From the NCBI GenBank assembly GCA_964016885.1, contig OZ024741.1:206894001-206958000 (forward strand): a stretch of 64,000 nucleotides of DNA, in the 5' to 3' direction. The stretch is from Eledone cirrhosa (Eukaryota). Shown here in pieces: positions 12,540 to 58,916 of the stretch (positions are counted from its first letter, which is position 1; the number at the start of each line of letters is the position of its first letter). The notes beneath the pieces are model-generated. The model worked only from the letters and a program-made list of their open reading frames with translations. It was not told the DNA's origin and did no database searches. The position numbers and the translations under genes are program-made.

Positions 12540-12602
12540 ATTACATTTTATTATACATATTTCAGATGTACAACAGTACGTCCTCATCAGACAAAATATA
12601 AT
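12540..12602 (-). ncRNA. Minimal type I hammerhead ribozyme (family C), left arm of inverted insertion 12495-13270
   Basis: 12-bp stem I ATTATATTTTGT/ATAAAATGTAAT, CUGAUGA, stem II GGACGTAC/GTACATCT, GAAA, palindromic TATGTA, AUA site. Confidence 0.8.
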
Positions 12603-14786: not shown

Positions 14787-15260
14787 ATATTTTACGATGG
14801 ACTTTTCGTCAAATCGGACCGAGGAAACAATGTTTCCATTGGTCTTTCCAATTGCTAATACTATCTATCGGTCGCAACTCCAGGTAGAAGGAGCAACGTG
14901 AAATAAAGTGTCTTGCTCAAGGACATAACGCATCGCCCAGTCCGATATATATTAATGGGTTATAAGATGTTGACTAGCAATCAGTAAACGATGATGCGAT
15001 TAGTTTCAAGCAGGCATCGTCATGTGTCTCATTCCAAATGCGATTTAGTGTTCCATGGCGTATGTATAGGAATATTAACGTTTTCTGTTTCCCGCCCTCT
15101 TGTTAGTAGTCTTTTCATTATTCTCCCTCACTTACATAACTCTTTCTAAGTCTGTTCCTAAAACTAAAACTACAATATTATATTAATAGTACTGTGACAA
15201 AAGTGACATTTCTGAGTGCCCTTCAGCATGACGGATCTCAATCAAATGGTTATAAACACT

Positions 15261-21521: not shown

Positions 21522-23436
21522 AGATGGGTAGGTGGGTAGATGGGTAGGTGGGTAGATGGGTAGATGGCTAGATGGGTAGATGGGTAGGTGGCTAGATGGG
21601 TAGGTGGGTAGGTGGCTAGATGGGTAGGTGGCTAGATGGGTAGGTGGGTAGGTGGGTAGGTGGTTAGATGGGTAGATGGGTAGGTGGCTAGATGGGTAGG
21701 TGGGTAGGTGGCTAGGTGGCTAGATGGGTATGTGGCTAGATGGGTAGATTGGTAGGTGGGTAGATGGGTAGGTGGGTAGATCGGTAGGTGGCTAGATGGG
21801 TAGATGGGTAGGTGGCTAGATGGGTAGATGGGTAGGTGGGTAGATGGGTAGATGGGTAGGTGGCTAGATGGGTAGATGGGTAGGTGGCTAGATGGGTAGA
21901 TGGATAGGTGGCTAGATGGGTAGATGGGTAGGTGGCTAGATGGGTAGATGGGTAGGTGGCTAGATGGGTAGATGGATAGGTGGCTAGATGCGTAGATGGG
22001 TAGGTGGCTAGATGGGTAGATGTGTAGGTGGGTAGATACGTAGATGGGTAGATGGGTATGTGGCTAGATGGGTAGATTGGTAGGTGGGTAGATGGGTAGG
22101 TGGGTAGATCGGTAGGTGGCTAGATGGGTAGATGTGTAGGTGGCTAGATGGGTAGATGGGTAGGTGGCTAGATGGGTAGATGGGTAGGTGGGTAGATGGG
22201 TAGATGGGTAGGTGGCTAGATGGGTAGATGGATAGGTGGCTAGATGGGTAGATGGGTAGGTGGCTAGATGGGTAGATGGGTAGGTGGCTAGATGGGTAGA
22301 TGGATAGGTGGCTAGATGCGTAGATGGGTAGGTGGGTAGATGGGTAGATGTGTAGGTGGGTAGATACGTAGATGGGTAGGTGGGTAGGTGGCTAGATGGG
22401 TAGATGGGTAGGTGGGTTGATGGGTAGATGGGTAGATGGGTAGGTGGGTAGATGGGTAGATGGGTAGGTGGGTAGGTGGGTAGATGGCTAGATGGGTAGA
22501 TGGGTAGGTGGCTAGATGGGTAGATGGGTAGGTGGGTAGATGGGTAGGTGGGTAGGTGGGTAGATGGCTAGATGGGTAGATGGGTAGGTGGCTAGATGGG
22601 TAGATGGGTAGGTGGCTAGATGGGTAGATGGGTAGGTGGCTAGATGGGTAGATGGGTAGGTGGCTAGATGGGTAGGTGGGTAGGTGGGTAGATGGCTAGA
22701 TGGGTAGATGGGTAGGTGGCTAGATGGGTAGATGGATAGGTGGCTAGATGGGTAGATGGGTAGGTGGCTAGATGGGTAGATGGGTAGGTGGGTGGAAGCG
22801 TAGATGGGTAGGTGGGTAGATGGGTAGATGGATAGGTGGCTAGATGGGTAGATGGGTAGGTGGCTAGATGGGTAGATGGGTAGGTGGGTAGATGCGTAGA
22901 TCGGTAGGTGGCTAGATGGGTAGATGGGTAGGTGGGTAGATGGGTAGATGGGTAGGTGGGTAGATGGCTAGATGGGTAGATGGGTAGGTGGGTAGATCGG
23001 TAGGTGGCTAGATGGGTAGATGGGTAGGTGGGTAGATGGGTAGATGGGTAGGTGGGTAGATGGCTAGATGGGTAGATGGGTAGGTGGGTAGATGGGTAGA
23101 TCGGTAGATCGGTAGGTGGCTAGATGGGTAGGTGGGTAGATGGGTAGATGGGTAGGTGGGTAGATGGCTAGATGGGTAGATAGGTAGGTGGGTAGATGGC
23201 TAGATGGGTAGATGGGTAGGTGGGTAGATGGGTAGATGGGTAGGTGGGTAGATGGGTAGATGGGTAGATCGGTAGGTGGCTAGATGGGTAGATGGGTAGG
23301 TGGGTAGATGGGTAGATGGGTAGGTGGGTAGATGGCTAGATGGGTAGATGGGTAGGTGGGTAGATGGCTAGATGGGTAGATGGGTAGGTGGCTAGATGGG
23401 TAGATGGGTAGGTGGGTAGATGGGTAGGTGGGTAGA
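21522..23436. repeat. 1.9-kb octamer minisatellite (AGATGGGT/AGGTGGGT/AGGTGGCT variants)
   Basis: Direct reading; 8-bp register kept throughout. Confidence 0.97.
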
Positions 23437-24046: not shown

Positions 24047-24271
24047 GCGTGTGTGTGTGTGTGCGTGTGTGTGAATCACTGAAAGAAAATATAGTACTGA
24101 ACACTGAATGTGTTAAGCTTCAAGAAGCGGAACATTTAGTCACAGTCTGGAAGTAGCAAGAGCTCAGCCGTCGGGTTCCCACTTTTTATAATATAGTCAT
24201 ACTCTATTACCCCCAATATCGAGTACTCTGTTGAGTAATGGTCTAACCATTTTCAAACTGGTTCCATACTG

Positions 24272-24432
24272 GTTCTACTTTTGGCACGAGGCCAGCAATT
24301 ATCCCAGTGTATGACTGGTACTTTATTTTATCGACCCTGTAAGGACGAAAGGCAAAGTTAACCTCGGTGGGATTTGAACACAGTCCGTTAAAGGCCGTAA
24401 CTCTCTGCTGCAGAGTATGGCGTCCGACCCCT
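24272..24432 (-). mobile_element. tRNA-derived SINE, head truncated at a TA tract
   Basis: Reverse complement of the family body. Confidence 0.85.
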
Positions 24433-24444
24433 TTATATATATAT

Positions 24445-24921
24445 GAATGTAGGTATAGTATATTTGATAATATACTGTATGTTTATTTTAAAACATTTAG
24501 AAGACCATTCGCTATGAGTTTTAAAGTAGTGACTATGTCACTTATTTAGTCTCGGCAAAAATAAAGGGAAGCAACCGACGGCAGTTTCTTGCTCGTTAGC
24601 GGTTATCAACATTGCATATCCCTTCACTTCCGCCAAGACTTATAGAAGCTGGATTCTTATAGAATTCCACTGATGTTTAAGAATTGATTAAACAGAGTAG
24701 TTGCCGGTCCAGCAAAAATTAGGAATTAGTATCAGTGCTCTGAAATAGCGATGTATGTATGAATGTATGTTTTGTCGAGACGAAGTAAGTGACATAGTCA
24801 CTACTTTAAAACTCATAGCGAATGGTCTTCAAAATGTTTTGAAATAAACATACAGTATATTATTAAATATACTATACATACATTCATACATACATCGCTA
24901 TTTCAGAGCACTGATACTAAT
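24445..24921. mobile_element. Diverged relative of the 311-bp retrozyme: one 316-bp monomer (minus) plus about 150-bp inverted arm, decayed HHR at 24571-24615
   Basis: Shared blocks TGCTCTGAAATAGCGAT, GTTGCCGGTCC, CTGTATGTTTAT, GAAGACC; minus strand TTGATAA..GAAA-CTGCCG-UC-GGTTGC. Confidence 0.85.
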
Positions 24922-25647: not shown

Positions 25648-25832
25648 AGTGGATTGGCAGTATCGGTAGAGGGTCTGACGCCATGCTTTGCAGCAAAGAG
25701 TTACGGCCCTTTATGGTTTGAGTTCAAATCCCGCCGAGGTTAACTTTGCCTTTCATCCTTACGGGGTCGATAAAATAAAGTACCAGTAATACACTGGGAT
25801 AATTGCTGGCCTTGTGCCAAAAGTAGAAACAA
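25648..25832 (+). mobile_element. tRNA-derived SINE
   Basis: A box, B box GAGTTCAAATCC, family body and tail. Confidence 0.9.
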
Positions 25833-37127: not shown

Positions 37128-37345
37128 ATTATAAAGAGTTAGGAACCCAATGGCTGAGCTCTTGCCGTTTCAACAGCTAGTTCTAGACTCAGACTGAGCC
37201 TGGAACTAGCTGATGAAACGGCAGTACCTCAGCCGTCCACGTTCTTACTCATAATAATATAACCATACACTACTACCGAAAGTATCGAGTACTCCGGTGA
37301 GTAATGTTCTAACCAGTTTCAAACTGAATCCATCCTGATGTATAT
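37128..37345. mobile_element. Family A-related fold-back centred on the putative stem-loop II
   Basis: GCCGTTTC-hairpin-GAAACGGC symmetry around 37193; 3' end in (TA)n. Confidence 0.7.
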
Positions 37346-46736: not shown

Positions 46737-46837
46737 CATATATTAAAACTTTTATACTCTGGTATGTATTGAGTACCTTACTTACTGTGGTTACCTCCGA
46801 GTCAACCCAGAATAACTTACCTATATATATATATATT

Positions 46838-49410
46838 GGTCGTTTGGGAAGCCTCAATAATGCAGATGGGTAAATCTCCGGGTAACAGAATCCGGTGGTG
46901 AAGAGAGAGATGTAAGAGGAAATGTCGAATGAGATGTATTGTGGGAGTGGGATGGTGCTAGCTGTCAATCCATTGTACTACCTATATTCAGTCTTTGTTA
47001 CTGGCAGTGTAGAAGTATGTCTGGTCGCTTATTGGTCGGTGGATTGTGGGGGCGCTATACACACAATAACAATCGTTCGAATGCCACTGTGTGTGTGCGT
47101 GTGCGTGTTTGTTTACACCAGCCACCTCGTCTCGCTTCTCTCGGATCGGTTATTTATTTGTGGTCCTAGGCGTTTGATCCTAAGTGCTTCTTTGATTGGT
47201 AACGTGCCGACGTTGCGTTCTGTCGCTAGCACTGTGACAATGGGCCTTCCGTTTTGTTTCCGTATTTGGTTATATGTTTCCGGAAAGACGAGGCCCTGGT
47301 TTTGATGTGCTCCTTGATCCGGATATGTAACGGCCGGATTATGCTACCAAAATAGTAGTGATTGCACCTGTCACATTCTACCCTGTATACAACGTATGTG
47401 CGTAAGCAACAGTTCGTTTGGCGCATCGGACAGTTTCTGAGGGAACACGCGTCAGTCGATTTCCCGGGTTTCCTGGAGGGGCATCTCCGTAGCGGGTTTC
47501 CTGGAGAGGCATCTCTGTAGCGACAGAACGCAATGTCGGCACGTTACGAATCAAGGAAGCACTTTGGATCAAACGCCTAGGACCACAAATAAATAACCGA
47601 TCGGAGAGAACGAGACGAGGTGGCTGGTTTAAACAAACGAGACAACAGAACAGGCACACACACGCACAGTGGCATTCGAACGATTGTTATTGTGTGTATA
47701 GCGCCCCCACCATCCACCGACCAACAAGCGACCAGACAGACTTCTACACTGCCAGTAACAAAGACTGAATATTAGTTGTACAATGGATTGACAGCTAACA
47801 CCATCCCACTCCCACAATAAAGAGGAGCTGCTTCGACCTTTGCTTGACCGCACCTATTCCGCTCGCACGCGCGCTCTACAGAATATCTCAGTTACACACA
47901 AACGGTGGACAACAGAGGCCACGTACCCTTCCTCTTCGACAGATAACTTTCCCCCTCGGAAAACCCCCCAGTTGATGGATGCGAAATCCGAAATATAGGG
48001 ACAATTAAATCTCACCCAAGGTAACTCTATCTCGTGTTATTATTTTTATTTTTCGCTCTTTCCTACGTTCCTCTACACACTATACATCTCATTCTACATT
48101 TCCTCTTACATCTCTCTCTTCACCACCGGATTCTGTTACCCGGAGATTTACCCATCTGCATTATTGAGGCTTCCAAAACGAACAAATGTTTTATTATTCC
48201 ACAATGCTTAAAGCAAACTTCAATACTCTCTTTTCCTTACACCTGAGCCAGGAATTGTTTGCATCCGCAAGGGAACTCTTTAGACTGTCGGAGAAATGGA
48301 CCAATTTTGGCTGTCAAATTATTTTCCTAAAACGCTGTCTAAAAAACGATGTCATCCCACCACCATCAGGCACATCCGCTTACCAGGATGCCTACGTACA
48401 CCAGCTTTTCAAAACACCGCTATCCGCATACTCCGCTCGTGTATGTGACATCTCAACCGCCAATTACACATATATAAATGGACATTCTCAGAGAGGACAC
48501 ATCGATTAACAGTAACACCCGGTGACTTGCTTCTTAAAATCACAAAAGCAATCGACCAGTGCTACCACTCCAGAATCCAACACGATAATAAAAACGGCTC
48601 AAGCGGAAATATGAGTGGATCTTGCTTAAACACCACAACGAAAACACCGATACTAACAAACAAACCAGAACCACGTGATAGACAACAACATTACAACCGC
48701 CGCCGCTACATCCACTAACAGCGAGCCACATCTCAACGATGTGACGCACCTGATCAACGACATAACCGGGACCCTCACGAACGACGAGCTGGAACTCCTA
48801 TGCCTCGGACCCAAATTCATCGTCTCACAGCGGTTCGACGACAGACTTAAACTCGACATCGAAGCCAACTTCTGCCGAGCCGCTTACCAACTTAAATGGG
48901 TGACCGCCATCTACAGCGCCACGTAAAATAACACCACCCACACAACCCGCCCCAAGTTCCCCGCTTACCACCACGACAACCCAATACAACGAACTCGACA
49001 CTAAACTCCTCAAGGTTAAAACACTCCATCTCTGATATCCAACACAAACACATATGCACAACACACAACCTCACTAAATCTCAAATCCCCACTCCCTCCA
49101 GCCTGAAATCGAGGAACCTCATCTACCTCCCTTCCAACAAGGGAAAGGAATTTTGCGTCATCAGCAGAGAGACCTACAACACCGTGGCCCTCCAACACCG
49201 TGACGATGACAACCTCTACTCCAAAGTCACAGGAATCTCTCCCGCGCAGATCGAGGATCACATCAACGCCGCCTGGACCAACATCTGTGACCGGCGGAAG
49301 CTATCGAAGAAACTCAGATACAACCCCCTCACAAAGAAAAGCAGACTACCCGCCTTTTACCACCCTGTGAAAACACACAAGCAGGGACCCGACCTGAAGA
49401 TCAGACCTTC
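46838..49410. mobile_element. Penelope-like element: inverted 3' end (minus, with GIY-YIG piece), pseudo-LTR and ORF N-terminal half (plus)
   Basis: VVYRVEC..C...YFG...R.L..RIKEH (47226-47426 minus); IRs 46939-47227/47518-47818 and 46838-46926/48096-48182; FLKRC..VIP, LGPKF, PSNKG, P.FY..VKTHK..IRP from 48186. Confidence 0.88.
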
Positions 49411-50911: not shown

Positions 50912-50969
<58 letters not shown>

Positions 50970-51023
50970 GTGAGGTTTTTTTTACAAAATTAAAAAAAAC
51001 GAGATGTCCTACACGAGTGAAAG

Positions 51024-51111
51024 TATAAGGAAAACAGATGAAATCGATAATGCAACTGGAGTCTTTAAAAAAAAAAAGACTCCAGCTGCATTTTCGATTT
51101 CAACTTTTTTC

Positions 51112-51116
<5 letters not shown>
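51024..51116. repeat. Hairpin (about 42-bp arms, oligo-A loop) between TA tracts
   Basis: TGAAATCGATAATGCAACTGGAGTCTTT / AAAGACTCCAGCTGCATTTTCGATTTCA. Confidence 0.8.
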
Positions 51117-51145
<29 letters not shown>

Positions 51146-51149
<4 letters not shown>

Positions 51150-53101
51150 TATAGACATAGAATATTCGAAAATATTCTGTATGTTTATAATAAACATTTT
51201 GAAGACCTAATCGCTATAGAATAGAATACGTCACGTATTACAATTAGATTCTCGATAAAAGCAAGGGAAGTAAATCTACGCGTTTCATTCTTATTAGAAA
51301 TCGTCAGGACTACATATCCAGTGCTTTCATCGAGAATGACACAGCTAGAGACTTATAGAATACTTAGCTGTGTACAGGAACTGGTTTGAAAGAGCGGTTG
51401 CCGGTCCGGCAGAAATTAGAAATTGGAATAAATGCTCTGAAATAGCGATATATATGTGAATATAGACATAGAATATTCGAAAATATTCTGTATGTTTATA
51501 ATAAACATTTTGAAGACCTAATCGCTATAGAATAGAATACGTCACGTATTACAATTAGATTCTCGATAAAAGCAAGGGAAGTAAATCTACGCGTTTCATT
51601 CTTATTAGAAATCGTCAGGACTACATATCCAGTGCTTTCATCGAGAATGACACAGCTAGAGACTTATAGAATACTTAGCTGTGTACAGGAACTGGTTTGA
51701 AAGAGCGGTTGCCGGTCCGGCAGAAATTAGAAATTGGAATAAATGCTCTGAAATAGCGATATATATGTGAATATAGACATAGAATATTCGAAAATATTCT
51801 GTATGTTTATAATAAACATTTTGAAGACCTAATCGCTATAGAATAGAATACGTCACGTATTACAATTAGATTCTCGATAAAAGCAAGGGAAGTAAATCTA
51901 CGCGTTTCATTCTTATTAGAAATCGTCAGGACTACATATCCAGTGCTTTCATCGAGAATGACACAGCTAGAGACTTATAGAATACTTAGCTGTGTACAGG
52001 AACTGGTTTGAAAGAGCGGTTGCCGGTCCGGCAGAAATTAGAAATTGGAATAAATGCTCTGAAATAGCGATATATATGTGAATATAGACATAGAATATTC
52101 GAAAATATTCTGTATGTTTATAATAAACATTTTGAAGACCTAATCGCTATAGAATAGAATACGTCACGTATTACAATTAGATTCTCGATAAAAGCAAGGG
52201 AAGTAAATCTACGCGTTTCATTCTTATTAGAAATCGTCAGGACTACATATCCAGTGCTTTCATCGAGAATGACACAGCTAGAGACTTATAGAATACTTAG
52301 CTGTGTACAGGAACTGGTTTGAAAGAGCGGTTGCCGGTCCGGCAGAAATTAGAAATTGGAATAAATGCTCTGAAATAGCGATATATATGTGAATATAGAC
52401 ATAGAATATTCGAAAATATTCTGTATGTTTATAATAAACATTTTGAAGACCTAATCGCTATAGAATAGAATACGTCACGTATTACAATTAGATTCTCGAT
52501 AAAAGCAAGGGAAGTAAATCTACGCGTTTCATTCTTATTAGAAATCGTCAGGACTACATATCCAGTGCTTTCATCGAGAATGACACAGCTAGAGACTTAT
52601 AGAATACTTAGCTGTGTACAGGAACTGGTTTGAAAGAGCGGTTGCCGGTCCGGCAGAAATTAGAAATTGGAATAAATGCTCTGAAATAGCGATATATATG
52701 TGAATATAGACATAGAATATTCGAAAATATTCTGTATGTTTATAATAAACATTTTGAAGACCTAATCGCTATAGAATAGAATACGTCACGTATTACAATT
52801 AGATTCTCGATAAAAGCAAGGGAAGTAAATCTACGCGTTTCATTCTTATTAGAAATCGTCAGGACTACATATCCAGTGCTTTCATCGAGAATGACACAGC
52901 TAGAGACTTATAGAATACTTAGCTGTGTACAGGAACTGGTTTGAAAGAGCGGTTGCCGGTCCGGCAGAAATTAGAAATTGGAATAAATGCTCTGAAATAG
53001 CGATATATATGTGAATATAGACATAGAATATTCGAAAATATTCTGTATGTTTATAATAAACATTTTGAAGACCTAATCGCTATAGAATAGAATACGTCAC
53101 G
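51146..53101 (-). repeat. Retrozyme-like array, left arm: 6.3 copies of the 311-bp monomer, 6 HHRs on minus strand
   Basis: Period 311 (GAATATAGAC at 51147, 51458, 51769); TCGTCAG at 51301+311n, n=0-5. Confidence 0.95.
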
Positions 53102-56100
53102 GACCGGCAACCGCTCTTTCAAACCAGTTCCTGTACACAGCTAAGTATTCTATAAGTCTCTAGCTGTGTCATTCTCGATGAAAGCACTGGATATGTAGTC
53201 CTGACGATTTCTAATAAGAATGAAACGCGTAGATTTACTTCCCTTGCTTTTATCGAGAATCTAATTGTAATACGTGACGTATTCTATTCTATAGCGATTA
53301 GGTCTTCAAAATGTTTATTATAAACATACAGAATATTTTCGAATATTCTATGTCTATATTCACATATATATCGCTATTTCAGAGCATTTATTCCAATTTC
53401 TAATTTCTGCCGGACCGGCAACCGCTCTTTCAAACCAGTTCCTGTACACAGCTAAGTATTCTATAAGTCTCTAGCTGTGTCATTCTCGATGAAAGCACTG
53501 GATATGTAGTCCTGACGATTTCTAATAAGAATGAAACGCGTAGATTTACTTCCCTTGCTTTTATCGAGAATCTAATTGTAATACGTGACGTATTCTATTC
53601 TATAGCGATTAGGTCTTCAAAATGTTTATTATAAACATACAGAATATTTTCGAATATTCTATGTCTATATTCACATATATATCGCTATTTCAGAGCATTT
53701 ATTCCAATTTCTAATTTCTGCCGGACCGGCAACCGCTCTTTCAAACCAGTTCCTGTACACAGCTAAGTATTCTATAAGTCTCTAGCTGTGTCATTCTCGA
53801 TGAAAGCACTGGATATGTAGTCCTGACGATTTCTAATAAGAATGAAACGCGTAGATTTACTTCCCTTGCTTTTATCGAGAATCTAATTGTAATACGTGAC
53901 GTATTCTATTCTATAGCGATTAGGTCTTCAAAATGTTTATTATAAACATACAGAATATTTTCGAATATTCTATGTCTATATTCACATATATATCGCTATT
54001 TCAGAGCATTTATTCCAATTTCTAATTTCTGCCGGACCGGCAACCGCTCTTTCAAACCAGTTCCTGTACACAGCTAAGTATTCTATAAGTCTCTAGCTGT
54101 GTCATTCTCGATGAAAGCACTGGATATGTAGTCCTGACGATTTCTAATAAGAATGAAACGCGTAGATTTACTTCCCTTGCTTCTATCGAGAATCTAATTG
54201 TAATACGTGACGTATTCTATTCTATAGCGATTAGGTCTTCAAAATGTTTATTATAAACATACAGAATATTTTCGAATATTCTATGTCTATATTCACATAT
54301 ATATCGCTATTTCAGAGCATTTATTCCAATTTCTAATTTCTGCCGGACCGGCAACCGCTCTTTCAAACCAGTTCCTGTACACAGCTAAGTATTCTATAAG
54401 TCTCTAGCTGTGTCATTCTCGATGAAAGCACTGGATATGTAGTCCTGACGATTTCTAATAAGAATGAAACGCGTAGATTTACTTCCCTTGCTTTTATCGA
54501 GAATCTAATTGTAATACGTGACGTATTCTATTCTATAGCGATTAGGTCTTCAAAATGTTTATTATAAACATACAGAATATTTTCGAATATTCTATGTCTA
54601 TATTCACATATATATCGCTATTTCAGAGCATTTATTCCAATTTCTAATTTCTGCCGGACCGGCAACCGCTCTTTCAAACCAGTTCCTGTACACAGCTAAG
54701 TATTCTATAAGTCTCTAGCTGTGTCATTCTCGATGAAAGCACTGGATATGTAGTCCTGACGATTTCTAATAAGAATGAAACGCGTAGATTTACTTCCCTT
54801 GCTTTTATCGAGAATCTAATTGTAATACGTGACGTATTCTATTCTATAGCGATTAGGTCTTCAAAATGTTTATTATAAACATACAGAATATTTTCGAATA
54901 TTCTATGTCTATATTCACATATATATCGCTATTTCAGAGCATTTATTCCAATTTCTAATTTCTGCCGGACCGGCAACCGCTCTTTCAAACCAGTTCCTGT
55001 ACACAGCTAAGTATTCTATAAGTCTCTAGCTGTGTCATTCTCGATGAAAGCACTGGATATGTAGTCCTGACGATTTCTAATAAGAATGAAACGCGTAGAT
55101 TTACTTCCCTTGCTTTTATCGAGAATCTAATTGTAATACGTGACGTATTCTATTCTATAGCGATTAGGTCTTCAAAATGTTTATTATAAACATACAGAAT
55201 ATTTTCGAATATTCTATGTCTATATTCACATATATATCGCTATTTCAGAGCATTTATTCCAATTTCTAATTTCTGCCGGACCGGCAACCGCTCTTTCAAA
55301 CCAGTTCCTGTACACAGCTAAGTATTCTATAAGTCTCTAGCTGTGTCATTCTCGATGAAAGCACTGGATATGTAGTCCTGACGATTTCTAATAAGAATGA
55401 AACGCGTAGATTTACTTCCCTTGCTTTTATCGAGAATCTAATTGTAATACGTGACGTATTCTATTCTATAGCGATTAGGTCTTCAAAATGTTTATTATAA
55501 ACATACAGAATATTTTCGAATATTCTATGTCTATATTCACATATATATCGCTATTTCAGAGCATTTATTCCAATTTCTAATTTCTGCCGGACCGGCAACC
55601 GCTCTTTCAAACCAGTTCCTGTACACAGCTAAGTATTCTATAAGTCTCTAGCTGTGTCATTCTCGATGAAAGCACTGGATATGTAGTCCTGACGATTTCT
55701 AATAAGAATGAAACGCGTAGATTTACTTCCCTTGCTTCTATCGAGAATCTAATTGTAATACGTGACGTATTCTATTCTATAGCGATTAGGTCTTCAAAAT
55801 GTTTATTATAAACATACAGAATATTTTCGAATATTCTATGTCTATATTCACATATATATCGCTATTTCAGAGCATTTATTCCAATTTCTAATTTCTGCCG
55901 GACCGGCAACCGCTCTTTCAAACCAGTTCCTGTACACAGCTAAGTATTCTATAAGTCTCTAGCTGTGTCATTCTCGATGAAAGCACTGGATATGTAGTCC
56001 TGACGATTTCTAATAAGAATGAAACGCGTAGATTTACTTCCCTTGCTTTTATCGAGAATCTAATTGTAATACGTGACGTATTCTATTCTATAGCGATTAG

Positions 56101-58678
56101 GTCTTCAAAATGTTTATTATAAACATACAGAATATTTTCGAATATTCTATGTCTATATTCACATATATATCGCTATTTCAGAGCATTTATTCCAATTTCT
56201 AATTTCTGCCGGACCGGCAACCGCTCTTTCAAACCAGTTCCTGTACACAGCTAAGTATTCTATAAGTCTCTAGCTGTGTCATTCTCGATGAAAGCACTGG
56301 ATATGTAGTCCTGACGATTTCTAATAAGAATGAAACGCGTAGATTTACTTCCCTTGCTTTTATCGAGAATCTAATTGTAATACGTGACGTATTCTATTCT
56401 ATAGCGATTAGGTCTTCAAAATGTTTATTATAAACATACAGAATATTTTCGAATATTCTATGTCTATATTCACATATATATCGCTATTTCAGAGCATTTA
56501 TTCCAATTTCTAATTTCTGCCGGACCGGCAACCGCTCTTTCAAACCAGTTCCTGTACACAGCTAAGTATTCTATAAGTCTCTAGCTGTGTCATTCTCGAT
56601 GAAAGCACTGGATATGTAGTCCTGACGATTTCTAATAAGAATGAAACGCGTAGATTTACTTCCCTTGCTTTTATCGAGAATCTAATTGTAATACGTGACG
56701 TATTCTATTCTATAGCGATTAGGTCTTCAAAATGTTTATTATAAACATACAGAATATTTTCGAATATTCTATGTCTATATTCACATATATATCGCTATTT
56801 CAGAGCATTTATTCCAATTTCTAATTTCTGCCGGACCGGCAACCGCTCTTTCAAACCAGTTCCTGTACACAGCTAAGTATTCTATAAGTCTCTAGCTGTG
56901 TCATTCTCGATGAAAGCACTGGATATGTAGTCCTGACGATTTCTAATAAGAATGAAACGCGTAGATTTACTTCCCTTGCTTTTATCGAGAATCTAATTGT
57001 AATACGTGACGTATTCTATTCTATAGCGATTAGGTCTTCAAAATGTTTATTATAAACATACAGAATATTTTCGAATATTCTATGTCTATATTCACATATA
57101 TATCGCTATTTCAGAGCATTTATTCCAATTTCTAATTTCTGCCGGACCGGCAACCGCTCTTTCAAACCAGTTCCTGTACACAGCTAAGTATTCTATAAGT
57201 CTCTAGCTGTGTCATTCTCGATGAAAGCACTGGATATGTAGTCCTGACGATTTCTAATAAGAATGAAACGCGTAGATTTACTTCCCTTGCTTTTATCGAG
57301 AATCTAATTGTAATACGTGACGTATTCTATTCTATAGCGATTAGGTCTTCAAAATGTTTATTATAAACATACAGAATATTTTCGAATATTCTATGTCTAT
57401 ATTCACATATATATCACTATTTCAGAGCATTTATTCCAATTTCTAATTTCTGCCGGACCGGCAACCGCTCTTTCAAACCAGTTCCTGTACACAGCTAAGT
57501 ATTCTATAAGTCTCTAGCTGTGTCATTCTCGATGAAAGCACTGGATATGTAGTCCTGACGATTTCTAATAAGAATGAAACGCGTAGATTTACTTCCCTTG
57601 CTTTTATCGAGAATCTAATTGTAATACGTGACGTATTCTATTCTATAGCGATTAGGTCTTCAAAATGTTTATTATAAACATACAGAATATTTTCGAATAT
57701 TCTATGTCTATATTCACATATATATCGCTATTTCAGAGCATTTATTCCAATTTCTAATTTCTGCCGGACCGGCAACCGCTCTTTCAAACCAGTTCCTGTA
57801 CACAGCTAAGTATTCTATAAGTCTCTAGCTGTGTCATTCTCGATGAAAGCACTGGATATGTAGTCCTGACGATTTCTAATAAGAATGAAACGCGTAGATT
57901 TACTTCCCTTGCTTTTATCGAGAATCTAATTGTAATACGTGACGTATTCTATTCTATAGCGATTAGGTCTTCAAAATGTTTATTATAAACATACAGAATA
58001 TTTTCGAATATTCTATGTCTATATTCACATATATATCGCTATTTCAGAGCATTTATTCCAATTTCTAATTTCTGCCGGACCGGCAACCGCTCTTTCAAAC
58101 CAGTTCCTGTACACAGCTAAGTATTCTATAAGTCTCTAGCTGTGTCATTCTCGATGAAAGCACTGGATATGTAGTCCTGACGATTTCTAATAAGAATGAA
58201 ACGCGTAGATTTACTTCCCTTGCTTTTATCGAGAATCTAATTGTAATACGTGACGTATTCTATTCTATAGCGATTAGGTCTTCAAAATGTTTATTATAAA
58301 CATACAGAATATTTTCGAATATTCTATGTCTATATTCACATATATATCGCTATTTCAGAGCATTTATTCCAATTTCTAATTTCTGCCGGACCGGCAACCG
58401 CTCTTTCAAACCAGTTCCTGTACACAGCTAAGTATTCTATAAGTCTCTAGCTGTGTCATTCTCGATGAAAGCACTGGATATGTAGTCCTGACGATTTCTA
58501 ATAAGAATGAAACGCGTAGATTTACTTCCCTTGCTTTTATCGAGAATCTAATTGTAATACGTGACGTATTCTATTCTATAGCGATTAGGTCTTCAAAATG
58601 TTTATTATAAACATACAGAATATTTTCGAATATTCTATGTCTATATTCACATATATATCGCTATTTCAGAGCATTTAT

Positions 58679-58684
<6 letters not shown>
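53100..58684 (+). repeat. Retrozyme-like array, right arm: about 18 copies of the 311-bp monomer, 18 HHRs on plus strand
   Basis: Reverse complement of the left arm; CTGACGA at 53201+311n, n=0-17 (last 58488); ends in (TA)n. Confidence 0.95.
53195..53238 (+). ncRNA. Minimal type I hammerhead ribozyme of the 311-bp monomer (representative copy)
   Basis: GTAGTC-CUGACGA-TTTCT(AATA)AGAAT-GAAA-CGCG-UA-GATTTAC; palindromic stem III ACGCGT; predicted GUA cut after 53231. Confidence 0.9.
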
Positions 58685-58720
<36 letters not shown>

Positions 58721-58725
<5 letters not shown>

Positions 58726-58916
58726 AACGAGTAGGACCCCGACGGCTGAGCTCAAGCCGTTTCGACGGCTAATTCTGGAATTACAGAATTAGCCGTCGAC
58801 ACGGCTTGAGCTCAGCCGTCGGGGTCCTACTCGTTCCTATTACCCACTCTACTACCCTAAGTATTGAGTACGTTGGTGCGTTATGGTCCACCTGGTTCCT
58901 TACCACATTTCCTTCG

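Follow-up and report, generated by a model that had tools for sequence, protein, structure and literature searches.

The tandem array described here is a non-coding hammerhead retrozyme whose ends lie inside a predicted RNA module that resembles one in Penelope-like elements (PLEs), and this module probably lets a PLE reverse transcriptase (RT)–endonuclease prime both nicked (TA)n strands on the same RNA. The fixed end sites lie in a predicted fold that one clade of PLEs also has at its ORF start, suggesting that the retrozyme likely borrows a PLE RT through this shared fold. The array is located in a 64,000-nt stretch (hereafter, the window) of the 3.0-Gb genome of an animal, Eledone cirrhosa.

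An inverted array of hammerhead retrozyme units

The stems quoted in a preliminary description of this DNA sit in a 311-nt hammerhead retrozyme unit that is tandemly repeated. The array consists of two inverted arms, of 6.3 and 18 units, embedded in (TA)n; the units are 99% identical, the 3' ends of both arms face outward into TA runs, and the arms overlap by 2 nt at the inner junction (Table 1). Hammerhead cores occur 24 times at 311-nt spacing, and the P1–P3 domain discussed below is repeated in all ~24 units. No stop-to-stop frame of at least 120 aa exists within 51146-58684, and the unit lacks the ORF with RT and GIY-YIG that marks an autonomous PLE. The target is (TA)n, and target-site duplications are unreadable within the TA runs.

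Table 1. Positions, in the window, of the retrozyme array, its sister insertion and the structural features discussed in the text
Feature	Position	Strand	Remarks
Left arm, 6.3 units of 311 nt	51146..53101	-	3' end = site A (51146), adjoins (TA)n
Right arm, 18 units of 311 nt	53100..58684	+	3' end = site B (58684), adjoins (TA)n
Sister insertion, older subfamily B0	24444..24921		ends in TA runs: minus arm, 24444 (site A); plus arm, 24921 (site B)
Upstream hairpin, 9-bp stem	53135..53169	+	subfamily-A form
Long stem closing the hammerhead	53171..53260	+	53171-53186 / 53245-53260; covaries across subfamilies
Type I hammerhead	53195..53238	+	stem I 53195-53200 / 53232-53238; core 53201-53207; stem II 53208-53221; GAAA 53222-53225
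P1	53291..53377	+	53291-53298 / 53370-53377; position matches AUG-containing stem of PLE families
GG-pyrimidine motif	53301..53307	+	1-3 nt after P1 5' strand; in retrozyme and all matching PLE families
P2 hairpin	53311..53327	+	retrozyme only; one U-A to C-G compensatory change
P3 hairpin	53330..53349	+	retrozyme only; stem 53330-53337 / 53342-53349; two compensatory changes, one shared G·U
Site A, first fixed 3' end	53362	+	7 nt before P1 3' strand
P5, 22-nt linker, P6	53381..53428	+	P5 53381-53385 / 53424-53428; P6 53408-53420, 5 bp + triloop; PLE-like spacing
Site B, second fixed 3' end	53397	+	35 nt past site A, 12 nt into P5 linker
Module at ORF start of decayed PLE family Z	48158..48262	+	P1 48158-48164 / 48201-48207; P5 48213-48218 / 48257-48262; P6 48242-48252

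Pattern searches of the whole genome returned 24,745 exact matches to a 15-mer anchor from the domain (control, 0) and 5,702 to the sister-type pattern. The element shows two hallmarks of retrozymes, a dispersed family with many insertions and a type I hammerhead in every tandem unit. Since an Rfam scan gave no match at gathering score, the assignment to the non-LTR retrozymes rests on the motif and on covariation. In a tree built from 40 natural units, each from a different locus, the older subfamilies (B0 to B3) form a ladder alongside a young array-forming subfamily, A; the natural units and loci come from among the matches listed (the first 100 places per search), nearly all on one contig, C1.

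The hammerhead has a palindromic helix III and a predicted cleavage site after 53231. According to PMC4209133, type I hammerheads with a palindromic helix III are the form that works in dimers, and this helix implies a dimeric form here; the core and stems are intact, as judged from the sequence. The region 53100-53420 folds better than its shuffles (z -4.7), as does the rotated unit (z -4.0). The 16-bp stem that was proposed to close the hammerhead is present, with 15 Watson-Crick pairs and one G·U; this G·U is private to the window array, and 8 of the 9 other subfamily-A units examined have 13/13 Watson-Crick pairs. The 22-bp stem of the sister copy is also present (minus strand, 24619-24640 / 24548-24569), and its deviations are all G·U on the ribozyme strand as claimed (17 Watson-Crick pairs, 5 G·U, no A·C). 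It had been called a different stem, which was wrong, as alignment shows the two to be homologous; an early reading of the sister as carrying a swapped ribozyme was dropped for the same reason. Between subfamilies ~7 positions of the long stem differ with pairing kept, including a G·U shared by B1, B1b and B2, and 42 of 45 units together have 77 G·U against 28 A·C, counts that are not independent. Moreover, stem II has undergone four successive double substitutions across subfamilies, and the core pair is U3-A8 in B0 and B3, C3-G8 in A, B1 and B2. The long stem, stem II, P2 and P3 all contain compensatory pairs and C3-G8 alternates with U3-A8, in agreement with the suggestion that selection acts on RNA structure.

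The surroundings of the array are rich in other repeats. Its left flank (50963-51116) consists of two ends of PLE family W, arranged as a short inverted pair into whose TA run the retrozyme inserted, and a perfect palindrome of ~115 bp directly follows the right TA run (58720-58840), with related pieces at 24160 and 37140-37250. An inverted pair of a SINE-like element, which we take to resemble an octopus SINE, lies at 24270-24430 and 25671-25831, and a 24-bp G-rich tandem array of 80 copies at 21525-23435. Other hammerhead-like cores are found at 12590/13079, 18853, 20308, 26774, 28252, 31608, 36938, 37896/38068, 38405/38636, 39266/39275, 46692 and 59088; they belong to several unrelated families, many as inverted pairs, and two of these families show two end clusters, ~70 and 90-105 nt apart. 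Runs X4, X5 and X6, from three other organisms and of unrecorded library type, each yielded a single 340-nt contig made of one unit plus 30 nt, as expected from a tandem repeat or a circle; these contigs were set aside as evidence of expression.

Two fixed ends and the domain that holds them

Insertions of the retrozyme end at two fixed positions, sites A and B. Exact patterns for subfamily A matched genome-wide at 1,251 places for site A (some of them internal), at 508 for an end 2 nt further on, at 1,017 for site B and at 15,180 internal junctions. The ends at site A that skip the adjacent AT run by 2 nt thus outnumber those that use it. Pairing of ends was analyzed among the matches listed on C1 up to 217 Mb, where 178 ends remained after 41 ambiguous ones were dropped; 110 of these form 55 outward-facing pairs and 68 are unpaired. 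One A and one B end were found in 54 of the 55 two-armed insertions of subfamily A (binomial p ~1e-15), and the single A/A case is probably an internal unit. For subfamily B, both ends could be typed in 16 of 23 pairings, giving 12 A/B, 4 A/A and 0 B/B. Inverted arms with a tail of 30-40 bp at one end are features of PLEs, and the retrozyme has both, with a tail of 35 nt; the one-A-one-B rule explains why only one arm is tailed. In four arrays, among them G000:C1:77389564-77394950, the 2 nt that follow site A are missing from all units, which looks as though the template had taken up a copied site-A/TA junction.

Around site A, the outer stem P1 encloses two hairpins, as the preliminary description had it. 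The first, P2, was drawn with 8 bp; the sequence is there, but as written the loop would have a single nucleotide, and 7 bp can form in the window and 6 bp family-wide. The second, P3, is where it was placed and shows the A-U to U-A swap reported for the sister, but its UUCG loop is not conserved, being GCCA, GCAA or ACCA in other subfamilies. In a family alignment, which had been suggested as a check, 50 domain copies contain compensatory changes amounting to three double changes, two of them on one branch; RNAalifold on the domain alone preferred a closing helix other than P1. This alternative helix shows no two-sided change, and its sense-strand probability is at most 0.28 in single monomers. 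In the 50 copies, 94.5% of the cells of the four tested helices are paired, against a shuffle control that ignores the relatedness of the copies. One P2 pair is U-A in 24 and C-G in 24 copies, with 2 U·G, and under a strict pattern its intermediates are one U·G locus and one C·A locus. Three P3 pairs vary, as A-U/G-C (24/24), U-A/A-U (43/5) and A-U/G·U (38/12). Counted by allele, 7 of 7 shared minority alleles in the 26 paired columns outside the search anchors keep pairing, against only 13 of 35 rare changes.

P1 shows no covariation within the retrozyme family, and its columns overlap the search anchors; as the anchors also cover the GG-pyrimidine motif and the bases after P1, the invariance of these parts is in part ascertainment. 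A further class of three copies has a C·A in P1, which looks like CpG decay. In natural monomers, the probability of P1 is at least 0.5 in 9 of 14 and that of P5 in 5 of 13, and the antisense strand folds more stably than the sense strand in 10 of 14. A small hairpin around site A, P4, was rejected, being unpaired at one position in 26 of 50 rows. The pyrimidine motif might form a pseudoknot or triple with the purines that follow P1. A covariance model of P1–P3 run over window positions 1-51000 found the sister copy and weak AT-repeat matches only, and missed the module of PLE family Z.

A predicted RNA module common to the retrozyme and one clade of Penelope-like elements

The search for a partner led through a chimeric locus, L126, whose junction pointed to an abundant PLE family with a C-terminal GIY-YIG, X, and then to its relatives Z and T; Z is present in the window as one decayed copy (46836-49410). 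X, Z and T have open frames of 860-879 aa, 54-66% identical, that contain RT and GIY-YIG, with a DKG motif, a CCHH endonuclease and a reduced cysteine linker. None of 113 homologues was a named reference by which these families could be placed in the Nematis, Neptune or Poseidon clade, and no solved relative of the X protein was found in the PDB. Family X has many near-identical copies and likewise two sites ending in TA; all 16 of its two-armed loci have one A and one B end. BLAST of the retrozyme against X and 30 GIY-YIG loci revealed no similarity, save for one adjacent retrozyme insertion. The retrozyme is thus not marked as a pLTR derivative by sequence homology to a pLTR, but it shares RNA architecture and end positions with a PLE family. 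The absence of BLAST similarity is compatible with descent and with convergence alike, and does not single out one partner.

The common order runs from P1 over 1-3 nt to the GG-pyrimidines, then, by way of a loop that contains site A, to the P1 3' strand (carrying the AUG in PLEs), over 1-5 nt to P5, through a linker of 21-25 nt with site B to P6, a triloop hairpin of 4-6 bp, and over 2-4 nt to the P5 3' strand. Stem sequences differ between the retrozyme and the PLEs, while the order and spacing of the helices are the same, and site B lies ~12 nt into the linker in the retrozyme as in X, Z and T. A descriptor free of any sequence term matched 9 distinct retrozyme and 13 distinct X/Z/T contexts and nothing else in a locus set of ~2 Mb, both strands counted, compared with 1-2 matches in each shuffle; its ranges were chosen after X and Z had been seen. 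The GG-pyrimidine motif was itself a term in other descriptors, those that found it, including the widened one described below. In a 17-row alignment of P5 and P6, 4 of 9 pairs change on both sides and 93.5% of cells are paired, the inner pair of P6 being broken in subfamily B3.

The two hairpins inside P1 are confined to the retrozyme. From GG to the P1 3' strand there are 69-72 nt in the retrozyme and 28-39 nt in PLEs, and subtraction of P2 (17-18 nt) and P3 (20 nt) leaves 32-34 nt. P2 and P3 would thus be inserts whose pairing is maintained because it preserves the proper length of the loop. Being absent from autonomous PLEs, they are unlikely to be the recognition signal themselves. The earlier proposal that the domain is the signal for the mobilising RT is therefore supported by the precise two-site ends and by the structural match to autonomous PLEs, but not as regards the inner hairpins. 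It had also captured, in P1, half of the likely signal; the shared GG-pyrimidine motif and P5, linker and P6 had gone undescribed.

The module comparison covered PLE families X, Z, T, V and W (U and Y being without an ORF-junction copy), and neither V nor W, whose tails measure 39 and 65 nt, matched, their predicted fold being another. In loci of W and V (L274, L283, L280 and L287), the AUG is also paired in a predicted stem, but one that encloses both end sites. Tail lengths are family-specific, at ~39, 40-44, 50, 60 and 65 nt. As an outside test, we used 75 metagenome loci of relatives, with best segments 22-57% identical to X. Before its ranges were widened, the descriptor matched 1 of the 5 loci containing an ORF start and 2 off-target places. 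Once widened after this outcome, it matched three further families, in L294 (L295 having the same sequence at that place), L298 and L304, always at an AUG of the coding strand, with 1 off-target match and 0-2 per shuffle, and missed L307, L313 and L358; P5 and the hairpin are visible in the folds of L307 and L313. Truncated metagenome copies stop short of the AUG or within the linker, 7-16 nt from its start, as approximated from BLAST ends. Folding of single sequences favors the module only in part, the predicted helix probabilities for P1, P5 and P6 being 0.22, 0.26 and 0.92 in X, 0.87, 0.90 and 0.04 in Z, and 0.99, 0.63 and 0.0 in T; P6 overlaps a conserved coding motif in several PLEs.

Chimeric loci were considered as identifiers of the partner and rejected, as their junctions involve two different families, X at L126 and Y at L075. 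One arm of L126 (1683-2311) is a ribozyme-less 163-nt repeat, seen at this single locus, with 4 units in which the entire module is preserved; it ends in TA at site B. The 3' half of a PLE of family X makes up the second arm. In L075 (787-1480), the inner junction joins a retrozyme arm to the 3' half of a PLE of family Y.

Template, mobilising enzyme and known systems

In the mechanism that we propose, array transcripts would self-cleave through dimeric hammerheads and then circularise, so that the template may be a circle on which a non-autonomous element presents the module to a Penelope RT. Folding out of ~37 extra nt by P2 and P3 would leave a single-stranded loop of 32-34 nt, within the range of PLEs. 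A protein dimer would bind P1, P5 and P6, with RT starting at site A on one target strand and at site B on the other; each RT would displace the cDNA of the other and circle the template, generating two inverted multi-unit arms joined at their 5' ends. More broadly, a module found across the PLE clade may set two RT active sites on two template positions, the retrozyme having kept or re-evolved the fold and giving rise to inverted arrays by double-primed rolling circle; for this wider reading, we regard the case for and against as evenly balanced. If true, one and the same module would account for the cis signal in PLE mobilisation, for how the tail arises and for the connection between the retrozyme and its partner.

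The nature of the template can be approached through the haplotypes of the arrays. Seven arrays represent six haplotypes, and wherever both arms contain units (6 arrays) their haplotype is the same, which indicates that one template served both. Older subfamilies have ~2 units or fewer, and the long arrays belong to young subfamily A. A circle primed at both sites fits these observations best, although a homogeneous linear multimer accounts for the shared haplotypes as well as the circle does. It is conceivable, if on the unlikely side, that a PLE acts at the two sites on linear transcripts and that arrays arise from uncleaved multimers or local amplification with no rolling circle. Hammerhead mutants still insert in vitro, where the main substrate is reported to be unprocessed RNA (PMC11167929); local tandem amplification has been proposed, 1 of 9 tested dimers having cleaved (10.64898/2026.07.22.740005); and haplotypes common to both arms fit a homogeneous source array. 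Such linear templates sit less well with arms that are both multi-unit with exact ends, with arrays that are shorter rather than longer in older subfamilies, with six different haplotypes fixed across 7 arrays and with a hammerhead core still under compensatory selection, and other animal retrozymes are described as accumulating as circles (PMC7229834).

As for the enzyme, the true partner might be an unsampled PLE family, the match to X, Z and T then reflecting clade-wide ancestry of the module rather than its present use, which we think improbable. Two-site or TA ends are seen in at least seven PLE families among the loci, the retrozyme tail of 35 nt is shorter than those of X (40-44) and Z (~50), there is no match at the sequence level and the fold comparison left out U and Y; on the other hand, the open frames of X, Z and T and the near-identical copies of X point to an active protein, with the module, as an available candidate, and V and W fold differently. 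A very improbable alternative dispenses with an RNA signal, the stems covarying through hairpin correction at the DNA level (template switching, quasi-palindromes) or cDNA selection, and the ends being set by TA microhomology. It would suit the Watson-Crick to Watson-Crick changes in P2 and P3 with their one U·G and one C·A intermediate in P2, the AT-rich sequence next to the ends and the often more stable antisense folds. However, at P3 pair 44-65, 20 loci have G·U and none has A·C, the long stem shares its wobble G·U among subfamilies, the switch of the 3-8 core pair is sensible only in the ribozyme strand, and more A ends skip the AT run than use it. Nor would it explain why A ends pair with B ends or why the module recurs in PLE coding strands. 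Strand bias and the pairing rule thus largely refute the DNA-level explanation, and we favor priming of both target strands on one RNA through the module.

That retrozymes exist and are linked to PLEs, and that there is a tail and initiation at two sites, has already been published. In our literature search, we found no description of the module, of a match between a retrozyme and a PLE clade by structure only, or of the one-A-one-B rule in retrozyme arrays, and supplements of the papers may bear on this point. The enzyme that mobilises retrozymes and the RNA feature that a Penelope RT recognises are both treated as open questions in the cited papers. The module points to candidate partner proteins whose frames are intact, yields predictions for individual helices and specifies two exact start sites, and it is suited to an in vitro assay that is already available (PMC11167929). 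Builders of RNA-templated insertion tools would likewise be interested in a signal that is short and can be transferred, serving a telomerase-related RT by which circles are copied into (TA)n.

The closest relatives of the present element are the animal non-LTR retrozymes (PMC7229834; 10.64898/2026.07.22.740005), which like it are non-coding tandem units of ~310 nt with a type I hammerhead each, and for which PLEs have been proposed as the mobilising partner. In the former report, RT is proposed to act on circles and PLEs are named a strong candidate; the latter describes pLTR homology for 24 of 57 Xenopus families and favors local amplification. In our case, the PLE link is one of RNA architecture without BLAST homology, and the anatomy of inverted arms with two fixed ends, one per arm, is resolved; we found neither point in the text consulted of those reports. 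The Poseidon element PAc of Anolis (PMC11167929) likewise has two internal RT starts 30-40 nt apart downstream of a hammerhead, and an AT-rich target of which both strands are cut and extended, as in our model; the tail of PLEs was traced there to these two starts, with a predicted protein dimer. PAc is autonomous, unlike the retrozyme, and as RNA features the main text names an AC-rich stem loop and a 172-nt ORF region only. PLEs with a tail and inverted pLTR (PMC8557442, PMC3846280) resemble the retrozyme in their 5'-truncated inverted arm, a tail of 30-40 bp at one end only, (TA)n and a minimal hammerhead, whereas the retrozyme has no ORF, arms that are long arrays and two extra hairpins in the P1 loop. 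The Naiad/Chlamys group is described in PMC8557442 as being without canonical hammerheads, and the non-autonomous Chlamys elements such as MRC1 are, like the retrozyme, multicopy head-to-tail PLE derivatives, but, unlike it, share 3' sequence with their partners (PMC8557442).

In L1 twin priming, both target strands prime on one RNA and an inversion results. In the retrozyme, by contrast, neither site varies, and the two cDNAs are copies of one and the same upstream RNA.
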